Below are positions 3,982-18,872 of a stretch of 50,891 nt of DNA, piece by piece. The stretch is from NCBI GenBank assembly GCA_026025795.1, contig JAPEUG010000091.1, positions 1 to 50,891 of the forward strand, given 5' to 3'. Each line of letters starts with the position of its first letter. Within the stretch, counting starts at the first letter, position 1. The notes beneath the pieces are model-generated. The model was not told where the DNA came from. It saw only the letters and a list, made by a program, of their open reading frames with translations, and searched no databases. The stretch comes from Thelocarpon superellum (lineage: Eukaryota). The position numbers and the translations under genes were made by a program.

Positions 3982-6963
3982 ATGGACCACCCCAGCACCT
4001 CTACGAGCATCGTGTTGCCCTCAATTGAACTTCCAGCACGCTCTGGGCCGTTGGCACCGCATTCGCCACCCGCTTCGCACCGCGAACCTCCCTCGACTCA
4101 CCATTGCCCATCCTCTTCGACTCGCCCCTCATCCCCCCAACCCTTCTCCGTCTCGAGATCGCCGCCATCGCGCCACTCGAGCGCCCGGTCCATCTCGACG
4201 GTCCGTCACCCACCCCGCCGTAGGTCCGTGGCCCACCCCGCGGCCGCCATGAGATCGCAGACCGGTTTGCATCAGCTCGACGACCGACTTACCTATACGC
4301 CCACCACCCACCGCATCAGCCGGGCAAAGAAAGGGAAGCGCGTCCACGCGTGCACGGAATGTAGCAAGGTGAGGCCCGCGCTGAGATAGCGGCGCACATC
4401 TACCGTGCTGACGGAAGACTAGATCTTTACACGTGCCGAACATCTCAAGTACGGGCTCCACGGGCCTCCTGGCCTTGCTTCAATGAGTGGCTGACCGAAG
4501 TCGTGATGCGCAGGCGACATAAGATGAATCACAACTCCGAGGCGCAATACCGATGTGATGTGAGTGGTTGTGCGAAAGCCTTCCACCGCGAAGACCTCCT
4601 CAAGCGGCACAAGGAGCGACAGTGAGCTCGCCTTGAACCCATCGTGTGGCTCCATCTCCGCTGACCCGGTGCAGCAGCGAGATGCTCACGGGTGGGAGCT
4701 CGTCCGGCATGCTCTCCAGCGCCAGCTCCAGTCGGCGTCCGTCGAGCACCTTCTCCGTGTCGAGCGCCAGCTCCATCCCTCCGGCCACGTTTGCGGCCTC
4801 GCCGACCTACTACCCGCATCCTGTCTCAGACACGTTGGGCCCCGAGGCCATGCCTTACATCACATCGGCCATGGAGCTCTCCAGTACCGCCCCGCACGCG
4901 TCGATGCCATCGACTACGCACGCGACCGATCCTAGCCTGCTGGCGCCACTGGCGATTCCGACGACGTCGGCCGCTGGGCCAGGAGCATATGTGCCAGACC
5001 TCTCATACGCCGGCTCCGATGAATCCCCATTGCAATCATCCAGCTCGAGCTGCTACTCGGTAGAAGTGGCGCAGTCGGGCTTTCCTGCGCCCGTGTTCGG
5101 GGTCCCGCCGCGACCGCGGTCGGATTCGGCCATGTCGGCGCCCGAGCCGTACTACTACTACTGCAAGTCTCCGCTGTCGGGAAATGCCAATCCTTTGCCT
5201 TGGACGGTGGAGGAAGCGGCGCCCGCGCATGCTCCACAGGTGCTGAGCAGCCCCTATGAGGGGTCCTTCCTTCCCACAGTGGGTACTCCGCCCCCCCAAC
5301 GACGGTCGTGGACCCTGGCTCATGATGTCGCAGTACCAACCCGACGGGTATCCCATGCCGCTGTGGCCGGAGGTTCCCTTCCAGAGCTTCGGCACCTGAT
5401 CTTGGGTAGCACGAGCGTGTGCGCCAATCCGCCCAGTCTCGGCGTCGACGTCTTGACCGTCGCCGACCCTTTTCTGGACCTCTACTGGAAGCATTTTGAT
5501 CCGTCGGTGCCCATCATCCACCGCCCGTCCTTTTCGTCCAAATCCAGTCCGGCGCTCGTGGTGGCGGCGATGGTGGCTATTGGCGCCCAATTCGCCCGAA
5601 CCCAGCAGTCGCGACCGTTCGCTGTGGCGGTGCACCAACGATGCAAGGAACAGCTGTCCGGCGTGAGTCTTCCTCCCGCGAGGATGTCCATGGACGCAGG
5701 CTGACCACGCGTGACAGCATGGAAACATTACCAGCCGCTCTCCCTTGCCCAACATCCAAGCCGTGCTTCTCTTGGAGTACTTTGGTCTCTTCCGGGCCAA
5801 GCGCATCGATGTGCAGGCGTCGGCCCACTTCCGATCCCTCTACTCCAGCGTAAGTCTCCGTCGCCCCACGGTGTCGGACCGCTCTGACGGGGATGCAGCT
5901 GTTTGAAGACCGCAACCGGCGGTCGACCGACCCACTGGCACGGCTCCGCTTGTCCCAGAGTAAGTCGGCTCGGCATGACGTGCGCCACGAATGGCTGCGC
6001 TGGGCCGATCTCGAGGCGCGACGCCGCCTCACTCTGGCGGCCTTCATCCTTGACGCCCAGCAAGCCAGCTTGTTCGAGCAGGATTTCTGTCACGCCCCGA
6101 CGACACGAGGTCACTCCAACCTGTACGCGAGTTGCCCAGAGGAGATTTGGGCGTGCGCCACCGCCGAGGGGTGGACCACGCATCAAACGGCGCTCACCAC
6201 GGTGCATCCCCAGCGCCGGCTTCCGGACATGGCGCGGGCCTTCCTCGAGTCCGACGTGGAGGAAAAAGGGCGCTCGGTCTTTGACGGCGCCGCAGTTCTT
6301 GCCTTGATCATCTCGTCTCGTGCCGCGTCGCCGCACGCACCGCTGGTGGACGAGCGACTCCACCAGTGGCGACGACGGGTGGATCCAAGTCGCCATGGCC
6401 TGCTCATCACCTACCACGCCTACCTCCTGGGCGGCGACACCCCTCTCCGAGACCTCTTGGCGGTGACGGGCGAGACCTGGGTTCTGGGGCAGAAGCTCAG
6501 TCACCCGGCCGAATTTGTCGTGGCGCGGACGCGCCTCCGGACGTGGGCCGAAGGTGCCAAGGCGAGGGCAACGGTCGGGCATGCGGCGCAGATCCTGCAG
6601 ATTGCCGCGGATGCGCAGAGCAACGGGCAGATGCTTCTGCTCGGGGGCGGCCTGCACGAAGCATGGTGCGTCTACGTTGCGGCCCTGGTGTGCTGGGCGG
6701 TTGGTGCGGCGCTTCGGACGACGATGGAGCCAGCATTGCCGATGGCGGAGGATCCTGCCCGGGAGATGCGCCAGTATCTCCGGGCCATGACCAGGTCGTC
6801 CGGGGAAGTTGATGGGCTTGGACCTGACGCCTGTCCTCTCCTGGCCCGCACGGCTGGCACGCTCTCTTGTGTCCGCCAGTGGCTGCAAGGCTCGATGAGC
6901 GGACTGTTGAAAGAAGGAGAGGAGGTGATGAGGAAGCTGGAGCAGGGACGTATCGAGCTCTGA
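3982..6963 (+). CDS. C2H2 zinc-finger transcription factor with a C-terminal fungal-specific TF (middle homology) domain; spliced
   Basis: Exons 3982 (or 4249)-4368, 4423-4448, 4514-4621, 4675-5662, 5718-5849 and 5899-6963 join in frame across GT..CTGAC..AG introns. They give two C2H2 fingers (HACTECSKIFTRAEHLKRHKMNH; YRCDVSGCAKAFHREDLLKRHKERH), then FLDLYWKHFDPSVPIIHRPSF, LVVAAMVAIGAQF and WADLEARRRLTLAAFILD, typical of the Fungal_trans region. The start is ambiguous; ATG 4249 has a GCCGCCATG context. Confidence 0.9.
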
Positions 6964-7309: not shown

Positions 7310-7393
7310 AACACCATCAACACCATCCACATCATCCACATCATCCACACCATCAACACCATCAACACCATCAACACCATCAACACCATCATC
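7310..7393 (+). repeat. 9-bp tandem repeat (CAACACCAT/CCACATCAT variants, about 9 copies) just upstream of the OTU gene
   Basis: Seen directly; reads (STP/STS)n in the OTU frame. Confidence 0.9.
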
Positions 7394-7433: not shown

Positions 7434-8429
7434 ATGGACGAGCCAGCCTTGTCGATGCACGCCAGGCATCGGAAGGAGCTCCGAGATCTGCAATCGCGCA
7501 TCACGCAGAAGAAGAAGGCGGCGAGCAAGAGGAACCGGAAAGCGGTCAATGCAGAATGCGACGAACTTGAGCGCCAGACCACGGAGAGACACGCTACAGA
7601 GACGACTGGATCTGGCGGAGCCGAGGCTCTTCGGACGGCTGAGGATCCCTCCGATGGCGACAAGGGCGTGTCGCATGGGGAGACGGATCGTCTCGACCCG
7701 ACGCTGGATCCTGCTCTACACATGTCCAAGCTGGACATCTCGAGCCCGTCTGCTCAGGAGCCCGACAACGCCTCAGCGACGGCTCCAGCACCAGCCCAAG
7801 AACCCGCCATTGGCTCGGCAATGGCTCCAGCGAGGAAAGGCAACCGTCAGAAAGCGCGGCTCGCACGCCGTGCGGCGGAGCAGGAAGCCCAAGCAGCCGA
7901 GGCCGCCGCCGAAGCCGCTGATCTACCGGATCTACGGGAGCAGGAACGCATCATGATGGAAGAACAATGTGAGAAGTATGGGCTGCGGGAGGTGCAGATT
8001 CGACCCGACGGCCATTGTCTCTACTCCGCCGTGGCGGATCAAGTGACGCAATTGGGCCTGTGGCCACCGCCCTTGGTCTCTCCTAGTATGTCGTTGGCGG
8101 TGGGCAAGAACGCCGCGCCCGACTATCGAGCTGTGCGAGCAGTCGCGGCAACATATATGACGGACAATCCGGACCCGTTTGAGCCATTTCTTGAGGAACC
8201 GCTCGCGAAATACACACATAAAGTCCGGGACACGGCAGAATGGGGCGGCCAGCTGGAGCTGCTCGCCTTGGCGCGAACGTTTGGCGTCGAGATCGACGTG
8301 CTACAAGGCGACGGCCGGGTCGAGAAGATCGAGCCTCTCACGACGAGCAGCGTGGAAAAGATGTGGCTGGCGTATCATCGACATCACTTTGGTCTCGGGG
8401 AACATTATAATTCGCTTCGAAAGAGATGA
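7434..8429 (+). CDS. OTU2: OTU-domain deubiquitinase, Otu2/OTUD6-like; single exon
   Basis: N-terminal RHRKELRDLQSRITQKKK coiled region, catalytic IRPDGHCLYSAVADQ, TAEWGGQLELLALA and His-box GLGEHYNSLR. First in-frame ATG is 7434; the ORF-track start at 7170 is a GTG. Confidence 0.92.
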   Translation: MDEPALSMHARHRKELRDLQSRITQKKKAASKRNRKAVNAECDELERQTTERHATETTGSGGAEALRTAEDPSDGDKGVSHGETDRLDPTLDPALHMSKLDISSPSAQEPDNASATAPAPAQEPAIGSAMAPARKGNRQKARLARRAAEQEAQAAEAAAEAADLPDLREQERIMMEEQCEKYGLREVQIRPDGHCLYSAVADQVTQLGLWPPPLVSPSMSLAVGKNAAPDYRAVRAVAATYMTDNPDPFEPFLEEPLAKYTHKVRDTAEWGGQLELLALARTFGVEIDVLQGDGRVEKIEPLTTSSVEKMWLAYHRHHFGLGEHYNSLRKR

Positions 8430-16977: not shown

Positions 16978-18872
16978 CTATACTTTTATGGACATGACCA
17001 AACGACGTGAGAGTGGTGTCGTTCGACCGGAGATGAAGCTGCCCGCGGGACTGCGCGAGAAGGAACGAGCGGGGCTTCGGCTGGCACCTCGCTTGCTGTC
17101 GGCTGAGATGGTCGAGGTGGGGCTTTGTCGGCCGCTCGCAAGGCTGGCGGGGCTCGTTCGCCCACTCAGACTCGCTTGACTGGCCTCTTCCAACTCTTGC
17201 ACTTGTGCCACTTTCCACGCCCGTAGCAGCCACATGCACACCGCTGCGCACACGTACATGCACCCGGCGAAGATCTTGACGGAGAAGAAATTGCCGCCCG
17301 TGACCTGGCGAAGTTCGAGGGCGAAAGGCTCGGCAACTGCACACAGCACAAGGTCAGCCAAATGAACGAGCGGGCCGCGTTCGTGATGTCACCCACAGGT
17401 CGTCGGAAGGACGATGGCCAGCCACACTATGGAAAGGCCAGACGAGAGATCCTTCAGCTCTAGCACCTCGGAAACGACCGGTCCCACCGCCTAAAAGAAA
17501 GTCAGTTTGGGACGGCTCGAAGTGATGGTGCGGGGATCACGAACGGCCCAGAATACCCCGCAGATCGTTCCCACCACCAGTGCGAAGGCGATAAGGATTT
17601 CGAAGGAGCTGGCGAAAATCCACATGCCGAAGCAGACTACCGCACACGCCATCGTGGTGAAGCCGGCGATGTTGAGTCGGCCGGCGGAGTCGCTGAAGTA
17701 GCCAACCACGGGTCGTCCGATGCCTTGGCCTGTGGCTCACGGTCAGCCGCCACACCAGCGCACGTCCCGTCCGGCGCGGGTTCTTACTCAGATTCAGCAG
17801 GGCCCCAATGATCGAGCCTTGCTGCGCGGTCAAGCCGATGCTTCTTGCGTAGTCGGGCAGAGAGAAGAGCAGGACGATGTATCCCAGCATGCTGAAGACA
17901 CTCCATCCGAGCACCAGCCAGAACTCCGGCTTAGCCAGCAGTCGGTAATCGAAGGCGCGCACCGTCGTCCCGATATGCTCATTCCGGTCCTTGATCAGCA
18001 GGGCGCAGACGCTGTTCACCACCAACTGGACCAAGGCCAAGATGCGGAAGGTCCACGCGAGCCCCAATGTCGTAATCATGGCGCCAGCCGCAAGACTGTA
18101 TACCAAACCTGACCGGACCTTGTTCAACCAGAGTTCCTGAATAGGCGCGCAGGAGGAGGCTTACCGCCAAAGCCAGACCCGGCATTGCCGATGCCATTGG
18201 CCAGGCTGCGTCGCTCGTGAAACCACTGAGAGATGATGCCGGCGGAGCCCACATGCTGGAAGCCGATGCCCCAGCCCAAGCAGAGGCCCTGGGTCAAGAA
18301 CAGATGCCATTTCTCCGTGGCAAAACTTGCGCCGAACAATGCGAGAGTCTCAAAAAACACCCCGACGAACAGCGTGGTCCGCGTGCCCCATAACCGGGTG
18401 ATGGTGTTGGCAACGGGTGAGACCATAAGACATTGACTGTAAGAAAGACCACCAATGAAGGCATAATCCAGGTATGTGGCTCCGGCAAAGGTGTTGTTGC
18501 TCAGATAGTAGGCCAAAAACACCCCGTAGGACTGCGAGCGCAGAGCCAGCGTTAGTCGACCGCTGCGGTGACACGAGACTCGGCATCCACGTGCGCGGTT
18601 ACACCGGACCGGACTCGGGGAGGAAGGGCTGCACGCACGCTATTGATGCCCCACGAATGGGCGTCGATGAGGAAGCAGCAGGCCACGCACACCCACCCGT
18701 AGCCTCCATCGGGGGACGATGATGGCTCGGCGTCGAGGGACAGGACGGACTTCTCTTCGTCGTCGTATGCAAGGTCCTTGGACTTCTCGGACAAGACCAA
18801 GGAGAGTGGCGGGGACGGGGACCGGACCTGGCCGGGCGTGGCCACGGGGAGGGGCTTGGTGGGGAGATGCAT
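16978..18872 (-). CDS. MFS monocarboxylate-transporter homologue (Mch/MCT family); six exons
   Basis: PDGGYGWVCVACCFLIDAHSWGINS|SYGVFLAYYL, SQWFHERRSLANGIGNAGSGFGG|LVYSLA, SMLGYIVLLFSLPDYARSIGL, GRPVVGYFSDSAGRLN and AEPFALELR. The introns join in frame (18638-18532, 18164-18109 and three more, the last with a GTGGGT donor at 17396). Confidence 0.92.

Follow-up and report, generated by a model that had tools for sequence, protein, structure and literature searches.

A probable old alternative intron gives a fungal two-finger transcription factor two C-termini from overlapping reading frames

Does a zinc-finger gene of Thelocarpon superellum encode two transcription factors whose C-terminal parts are read from the same bases in different frames? 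The window analysed here is the whole of a stretch of 50,891 nucleotides (nt), contig JAPEUG010000091.1 of assembly GCA_026025795.1, and the gene in question runs on its plus strand, as do all features below unless stated otherwise, from an ATG at 3982 to a TGA at 6963. It encodes a transcription factor with two C2H2 fingers and a Fungal_trans (PF04082) domain. An earlier reading of the DNA letters alone, here called the original prediction, proposed that an intron-like element inside its exon 4 switches the factor between two forms. We consider 5279–5333 to be a genuine and old alternative intron, with a rough probability of 0.78. Splicing from its first donor would give a short form, splicing from its second donor or retention would give a long form, and the bases behind the acceptor would be selected in both frames.

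The signals named in the original prediction are all where it placed them: donor 1 (GTGGGT, 5279–5284), donor 2 (GTACTC, 5283–5288), a branch-like GCTCAT (5318–5323), the acceptor CAG (5331–5333, read from the sequence) and an early TGA (5397–5399). The intron is 55 nt long (3n+1), stop-free in the long frame and in phase 0, and its position is the same as in orthologues. Counted from the ATG at 3982, excision of 5279–5333 shifts the frame and yields a protein of 396 amino acids (aa) that ends in YQPDGYPMPLWPEVPFQSFGT before the early stop. It loses the Fungal_trans domain, as had been predicted, since the PF04082 match (E 4.2e-10, 39.6 bits against a cut-off of 23) begins at about 5474, downstream of that stop. 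Excision of 5283–5333 (51 nt) and full retention both keep the long frame, giving 884 and 901 aa, respectively. The two intron lengths also agree, as claimed, with the five constitutive introns of the gene, which measure 49–65 nt (54, 65, 53 or 56, 55 and 49 nt). The short form is not the zinc-finger-only protein that had been envisaged; it keeps a disordered linker of about 200 aa and gains a new tail.

A search for proteins of similar length gave 37 matches across several classes of Pezizomycotina. In an alignment of the best 33 long orthologues either a gap or a read-through insert of about 15–19 aa stands exactly at the alternative intron. Out of 17 read-through models 16 begin with V-G, which corresponds to a G at intron position +4, and one with V-C (15 of these inserts were located by pattern and 2 by eye). 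In 24 of the 37 long proteins the residues behind the intron are compatible with a Y-P-x-P-x-W motif in the +1 frame, even where the long-frame residues differ widely (3 of the 37 could not be located; the background was 21 of 25,811 positions). A second search, for shorter proteins, gave 206 matches; among the best 120, which were examined, 105 are 270–420 aa long and 68 of these 105 end with Y[PRL]x[PSTQ]xW. The original prediction had suggested looking for orthologues that share the intron position and stop early behind it; such orthologues were found in the protein alignment, and again in the genomic loci described below.

Both products are also found in public annotations. Talaromyces marneffei has a long protein (P0013/P0169) and is also annotated as two adjacent genes, EYB26_004080 and EYB26_004079 (P0196, short, and a separate P0170), so that both junctions are present in public models of one species. 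Phialophora macrospora is likewise annotated as two adjacent genes, PV04_05240 (short) and PV04_05241 (domain only), an arrangement that had been foreseen. Proteins from Logan and JGI behave as splice-unaware open reading frame (ORF) calls, one of them (P0177) reading through an intron, yet three Logan proteins (P0038, P0052 and P0145) carry the short junction on contigs of 1.4–2.9 kb. These contigs therefore most likely derive from cDNA. P0052 matches the donor-1 product of one of the genomic loci (L014), and a Thermoascus model (P0030) uses donor 2. In Exophiala sideris a model labelled as a variant splices the alternative intron and is without about 25 aa after the fingers, whereas the main model keeps both (P0016 vs P0162); this is possibly a second alternative splice in the family. 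In three further proteins (P0039, P0209 and P0121) read-through of an intron of length 3n leads into the short tail. Retention could not give a long form there, and any such gene that has the domain would require a second splice site.

A metagenome scan gave 79 loci, of which 34 have the helical domain, another 34 have fingers and tail and no domain, and 11 are cut off at their ends or distant. A tail profile, built from the tails of annotated short proteins, matched at 15 bits or more just upstream of the domain in 22 of the 34 domain-bearing loci, showing a conserved overlapping tail with Y-P-S-P-x-W. Frames were read out for 15 of these 22, and in every one the tail is offset from the long frame by one base. 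Junctions were reconstructed for 15 distinct domain-bearing loci together with the window, and two splice designs were found. In the first (the window, L004, L024, L014 and L044) two donors lie 4 nt apart, and the intron, of 55 or 58 nt, has no stop in the long frame. The second, in 11 loci, has one donor, two acceptors 10 nt apart and two branch-like motifs; the best matches of these loci are proteins of Chaetothyriales or Pyrenula (7 of the 11 were checked). In both designs one choice leads into the long frame and the other into a tail that ends 26–36 codons after a conserved Trp, the window's own tail, at 11 codons, being shorter.

The annotation of two species as two adjacent genes would also fit a factor that is always spliced to the short form, the downstream domain being expressed as a separate gene or from a separate start. 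We regard this as hardly credible. Throughout the overlap, which lies ahead of any in-frame Met of the separate models, the long frame is both open and conserved. The intron is 3n+1 in length and free of stops in each of the five tandem-donor loci, and in the double-acceptor loci the first acceptor stays in frame.

Some lineages keep the short form only. Of the 34 loci with fingers and tail 19 were tested with six domain profiles and none matched, 13 of them having at least 2.3 kb of downstream DNA. Ten of the 11 short-only loci examined have a normal donor at the position of the alternative intron, and the long frame there either runs into a stop early or carries no domain. Traces of the long frame (for example SPIPISISYLG and SISISLSYMDG) persist in L028:3967-4010, L062:3989-4050 and L034:3989-4030 and end at a stop after a few codons. 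A Penicillium-like short-only gene (L031:3775-4000) has no intron at the alternative site, an intron loss, and carries the conserved tail at its end. The comparison across loci and proteins thus establishes the intron, the two frames, the dual constraint in orthologues (below) and the existence of lineages in which only the short form survives. The short form seems to be a real protein and not just bait for nonsense-mediated decay (NMD), because its tail is conserved and several lineages keep it as their only product. A purpose in NMD alone, one of the alternatives in the original prediction, is accordingly disfavoured, and since short-only genes exist NMD cannot be the purpose family-wide.

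That the bases after the acceptor code for both proteins is best seen at sites where the long protein is indifferent. The test for selection on both frames covered 12 loci, window included, and 18 codons of overlap, and compared pairwise identity at fourfold-degenerate sites of the long frame. Such sites were identical in 242 of 293 pairwise comparisons in the overlap vs 78 of 279 at the domain start, and in 43 of 169 in a second control further downstream (8 of the 12 loci); as the pairs share ancestry, these counts are descriptive contrasts and not P-values, which tempers the case. Near-invariant fourfold columns numbered 7 of 11 in the overlap and 0 of 8 in the control. Amino-acid identity in the overlap was 0.50 in frame 0, 0.48 in the +1 frame and 0.37 in the +2 frame, compared with 0.65, 0.34 and 0.36 in the control. 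A stop within the overlap was found in 1 of the 12 loci in the +1 frame, which is the window's own end, and in 8 of 12 in the +2 frame. The test set is what remained after setting aside near-duplicates (L003, L005, L006, L013, L015, L017, L046, L047, L049, L050 and L052), the 12 distant tail-less loci, the 34 short-only loci and the 11 cut-off or distant ones. On these contrasts the overlap encodes both proteins and is under selection in both frames in orthologues, and the dual coding claimed in the original prediction is supported by the frozen long-frame synonymous sites.

In the window the dual-coded segment spans 5334–5399, where the +1 frame encodes the 21-aa short tail and its TGA, and frame 0 the end of the linker and the first helix of the long form. 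The tail holds YPMPLW (5349–5366), in register with Y-P-S-P-[ST]-W of orthologues, a register that was set independently by the alignment of the long proteins. The structure model of the long form has residues 92–299 disordered and a confident helix at residues 301–310 (SLPELRHLIL, 5375–5404; predicted local distance difference test, pLDDT, 84), and according to this model the short motif overlies a floppy stretch of the long form while the helix overlies the end of the short tail. The Y, P, P and W are kept in the +1 frame under long-frame residues that have drifted further (score -13.1; VSHAAVA vs IPLSDLD). When the long frame was randomly recoded with synonymous codons, the observed tail score was reached in 0.26% of 100,000 trials (P = 0.0026) and the motif in 0.17%. 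In the converse recoding of the short frame, the long-frame score was reached in 38% of trials.

The window's own case is weaker than that of the family, and its tail is divergent. Several observations weigh against the favoured reading. A hidden Markov model of the tail, built from the 105 annotated short proteins, did not detect the window tail in the window's six frames. With a position-specific scoring matrix it scored -2.2, compared with 26–43 in the other loci, and it ranked 198th among the 101,706 12-mers of the window. It ends 11 codons after the Trp vs 26–36 in 11 other loci. As would fit an NMD target, the early stop precedes the next intron by 263 nt and the stop of the long form by 1,460 nt. 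The full +1 motif is incompatible with the close relatives P0003 and P0219 and with P0221, all of them protein-only records. At the level of the family, the tail is absent from 12 of the 34 domain-bearing loci, which are more distant homologues with scores of at most 6 bits, and the tandem-donor design is seen in five loci that stem from only about two lineages. Donor 2 is, furthermore, a weak route to the long form in the window.

Taken together, the halved tail that the family profile misses, the stop 263 nt upstream of a junction with a 3' untranslated region (UTR) of 1.46 kb, and the motif that cannot be encoded in P0003, P0219 and P0221 may point to an architecture that is real in the family and decaying in Thelocarpon, where the short mRNA would mainly lower the dose of the long factor through NMD. 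We regard this as unlikely, but it is the alternative to be taken most seriously. Decay does not sit well with the Y, P, P and W kept under changed long residues, for which the recoding gave P = 0.002–0.003, nor with the T. impressellum orthologue, whose differing long-frame residues (LSVSPVV) still allow the +1 motif to be encoded. The short form of orthologues, moreover, appears to have been annotated from, or assembled as, abundant mRNA. Six proteins (P0001, P0002, P0003, P0219, P0220 and P0221) all have L-[IM] where the short frame of the window stops, which is compatible with an earlier stop shared by Thelocarpon and its relatives. NMD may nevertheless trim the short mRNA in the window.

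How the two forms would be chosen can be judged from the splice signals. Donors were compared by counts of their +4 and +5 bases only, because a position-weight score that took in the exonic bases was biased by the few intron positions sampled and came out negative for two introns of this very gene. Donor 1 carries the consensus G at +5, as do 55 of 59 constitutive donors of the sampled loci, whereas donor 2 has T there, as does 1 of 59. A G at +4, which is rare (2 of 59 constitutive introns), is found in 5 of 5 tandem-donor loci, 1 of 7 double-acceptor loci and 1 of 11 short-only loci. The 12 bases from 5279 to 5290 are identical to the first 12 intron bases of L004 and L024. Both donors of the original prediction are thus present, but their tandem spacing, which it stressed, means little: a GT four bases in is part of the usual GTRAGT consensus (+5/+6) and is seen in short-only genes too. 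Tandem GT as a remarkable feature in itself was therefore rejected, and on these counts the informative feature would be the G at +4. This base is the last exon base for donor 2, and its retention in the tandem-donor loci suggests either use of donor 2 or a donor 1 that is held weak.

The branch-like heptamer GGCTCAT (5317–5323) is weak and is also found in L004; the branch motif of L024 reads GCTTAT. Its branch A, at 5322, lies 12 nt from the intron end, compared with 11–20 nt in the five constitutive introns, all of which have CTGAC where the alternative intron has CTCAT; the motif is thus weaker and equally spaced. The weak branch and the conserved open intron favour intron retention as an additional route to the long form. 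Elements of this kind are infrequent in the long stop-free frames of the window, with 2 per 16,002 nt, 5279–5333 being one of them, and among the GT..AG pairs of 45–80 nt in exon 4 a branch-like motif accompanies only the acceptors 5333 and 5409. The GTGGGT at 17396 that had been cited as a working donor elsewhere plausibly is one, belonging to a 60-nt intron (17337–17396) with a GGCTGAC branch whose retention leads to a stop, but it lies on the minus strand. The translation of the gene holding this intron resembles a membrane transporter by appearance.

Donor 1 being consensus-like, "latent" is probably the wrong word for this intron, and splicing may yield the short form by default. This has to be weighed against the alternative that only the long form is made here, by retention or from donor 2, the donor-1 signal and the +1 motif being relics or coincidence. 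The public model does use donor 2, and five close relatives are modelled with the intron retained, but gene prediction is biased towards the longest ORF. P0003, which keeps the alternative intron and is without a downstream intron that P0219 runs into, looks like an ORF of the cDNA type; it may be a retained-intron cDNA, an alternative reading being intron loss. The difference between the donors at +5 (G in 55 of 59, T in 1 of 59) argues against exclusive use of the long form, as does the donor 12-mer, shared without a mismatch by two loci whose identity to their best-matching proteins is only about 40%. We regard production of the long form alone as highly unlikely. The alternative intron with two products remains our preferred reading, and from it we infer that both mRNAs are made in T. 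superellum, the short form being expected as the default spliced product and the long form from both donor 2 and retention.

Donor-1 splicing would then produce a short factor of two C2H2 fingers, a disordered linker and an aromatic, Pro-rich tail from the +1 frame, whereas splicing from donor 2, four bases on, or retention would produce a long factor with the helical Fungal_trans domain. Aromatic residues (W, F or Y) make up 16% of the tails and 5% of the linker, and 24% of the window tail, and the tails are nearly without basic residues. An aromatic, base-poor composition is usual for activation motifs. Because of this composition, and because the domain of fission yeast Zas1 binds the aromatic motif of its own protein (see below), we lean slightly towards a model in which the short form acts as an unshielded activator. 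The long form would bind the same DNA sites while restrained by its helical domain or dependent on a signal. The two forms would compete for sites, and the splice ratio would set the output.

The remainder of the gene is ordinary in its structure. Exon 1 (3982–4368) encodes an N-terminal extension and the start of finger 1 (PTTHRISRAKKGKRVHAC), and is followed by a 54-nt intron 1 (4369–4422, GTGAGG..GCTGAC..TAG). Exon 2 (4423–4448) continues finger 1, which ends, after the 65-nt intron 2 (4449–4513), in exon 3 (4514–4621), where finger 2 follows. The 53-nt intron 3 (4622–4674) has a CAGCAG acceptor and measures 56 nt with the second AG. Exon 4 begins with the Ser/Pro-rich disordered linker common to all isoforms (4675–5278, pLDDT < 50). 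Behind the early stop, the rest of exon 4 (5400–5662) encodes the start of the Fungal_trans domain and would be 3' UTR in the short mRNA. A 55-nt intron (5663–5717), an exon in the helical domain that is present in our gene model and in the public one (5718–5849), a 49-nt intron (5850–5898) and the last exon (5899–6963), with the rest of the helical domain and the TGA of the long isoform, complete the gene. The fingers are N-terminal; PF00096 is annotated on the public protein and finger residues are nearly invariant in the alignment, and the exon 3 fragment matched zf-C2H2 at E 0.0037, below the Pfam cut-off on a fragment. The predicted structure of the long form has a confident all-helical domain from residue 326, with which structural neighbours in the Atlas agree; Foldseek against the PDB gave no match for this model at E <= 0.001.

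The public model of the gene is M1838_006155 (P0001) of T. superellum, 794 aa, identical over the queried region, which uses the 51-nt intron (donor 2) and starts at a downstream Met at 4251. An in-frame ATG lies about 90 codons upstream of that start, and an N-terminal extension comparable to 3982–4250 is present in many orthologues; the public model is therefore probably truncated at its N-terminus. At the tandem acceptor of intron 3 (4672–4677) it uses the second AG, and use of the first adds one Ser.

Downstream of the gene, 7310–7391 holds nine copies of a 9-bp unit, AACACCATC, with 94% matches. It lies just upstream of an intronless ORF (7437–8429) for an OTU-like deubiquitinase (PF02338, E 5e-21), the frame of which is open through the repeat.

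Dual-coding loci in which overlapping frames give two proteins include XBP1/HAC1, GNAS (XLas/ALEX) and INK4a/ARF, all in protein families unrelated to that of the window gene. In XBP1 a frameshifting splice alters the C-terminus of a transcription factor, but XBP1 and HAC1 use cleavage by IRE1 and not the spliceosome. Much closer is a study of about 2023, reportedly from the Jedd laboratory and on Neurospora, which is said to describe conserved dual-coding regions created by alternative splicing in fungal C2H2 factors with tandem fingers, a long isoform with the fungal transcription factor domain, a frame-shifted short isoform, selection on both frames where they overlap, and opposing roles of the two isoforms. 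A literature search, with thin coverage of subscription papers, did not find it. We think it fairly probable that the phenomenon is already in print at the level of the family.

A bolder reading, which we hold only tentatively and consider rather doubtful, is that the pair of protein products has been conserved here and the splice signals have not, a situation not described before, with tandem donors or retention in some fungi doing the work of tandem acceptors in Chaetothyriales-like ones. At least three lineages (Aspergillus/Penicillium, dermatophytes and some lichen fungi) would have become short-only by giving up the long form, the overprinted frame being left to supply the sole C-terminus. 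If true, this would be a traceable route from regulated factors to domain-less zinc-finger activators such as AN5659 of Aspergillus nidulans. To our knowledge, long-lived dual-coding regions are rare in eukaryotes. The present one can be traced through several classes of fungi, among which the splice mechanism takes two forms and one product has been lost repeatedly, and it thereby offers a natural setting for testing how overlapping frames originate, accommodate each other's constraints and resolve. Because public annotations show a single isoform per genome, or two genes in place of one, tagging and knock-out work on these factors may overlook half of their biology.

AN5659 (Afu4g13600 in A. 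fumigatus) is an orthologue by its finger region (P0104, 314 aa), and its C-terminus aligns by eye with the short tail; unlike the window gene it is annotated as short-only. In the accessible part of a study of this gene its expression is hypha-enriched and a deletion strain was made, a colony phenotype being singled out for another gene only, and neither "splic" nor "isoform" occurs there (PMC12306176). In Trichoderma virens, Xlr2 is likewise a fungal transcription factor whose domain content is switched by alternative splicing, but the switch is a microexon that controls the DNA-binding domain, and the portion of the report available describes no overlapping frames (PMC11121469).

The best functional parallel is Zas1 of Schizosaccharomyces pombe, which shares two C2H2 fingers and PF04082 with the window gene and is alternatively spliced. 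It differs in that its splicing is in frame and adds a third finger (845 vs 897 aa), and the available sections of the two papers describe no frameshift, overlapping frame or natural truncated isoform (PMC6028546, PMC5034255). Splicing of the Zas1 type was rejected for the window: retention of the 51 nt adds 17 aa, roughly 200 aa behind the fingers, and these show no Cys/His pattern of a finger. Distant homologues without the intron and the tail (L038:3925-3990, L053:3960-4040 and P0031) carry an aromatic, acid-flanked W-L-F-D upstream of the domain, which appears to resemble the activation motif described for Zas1. In Zas1, as far as the accessible text goes, the fingers and a short aromatic activation motif suffice for function, and the PF04082 domain binds that motif, which its authors suggest may be shielded in this way (PMC6028546).

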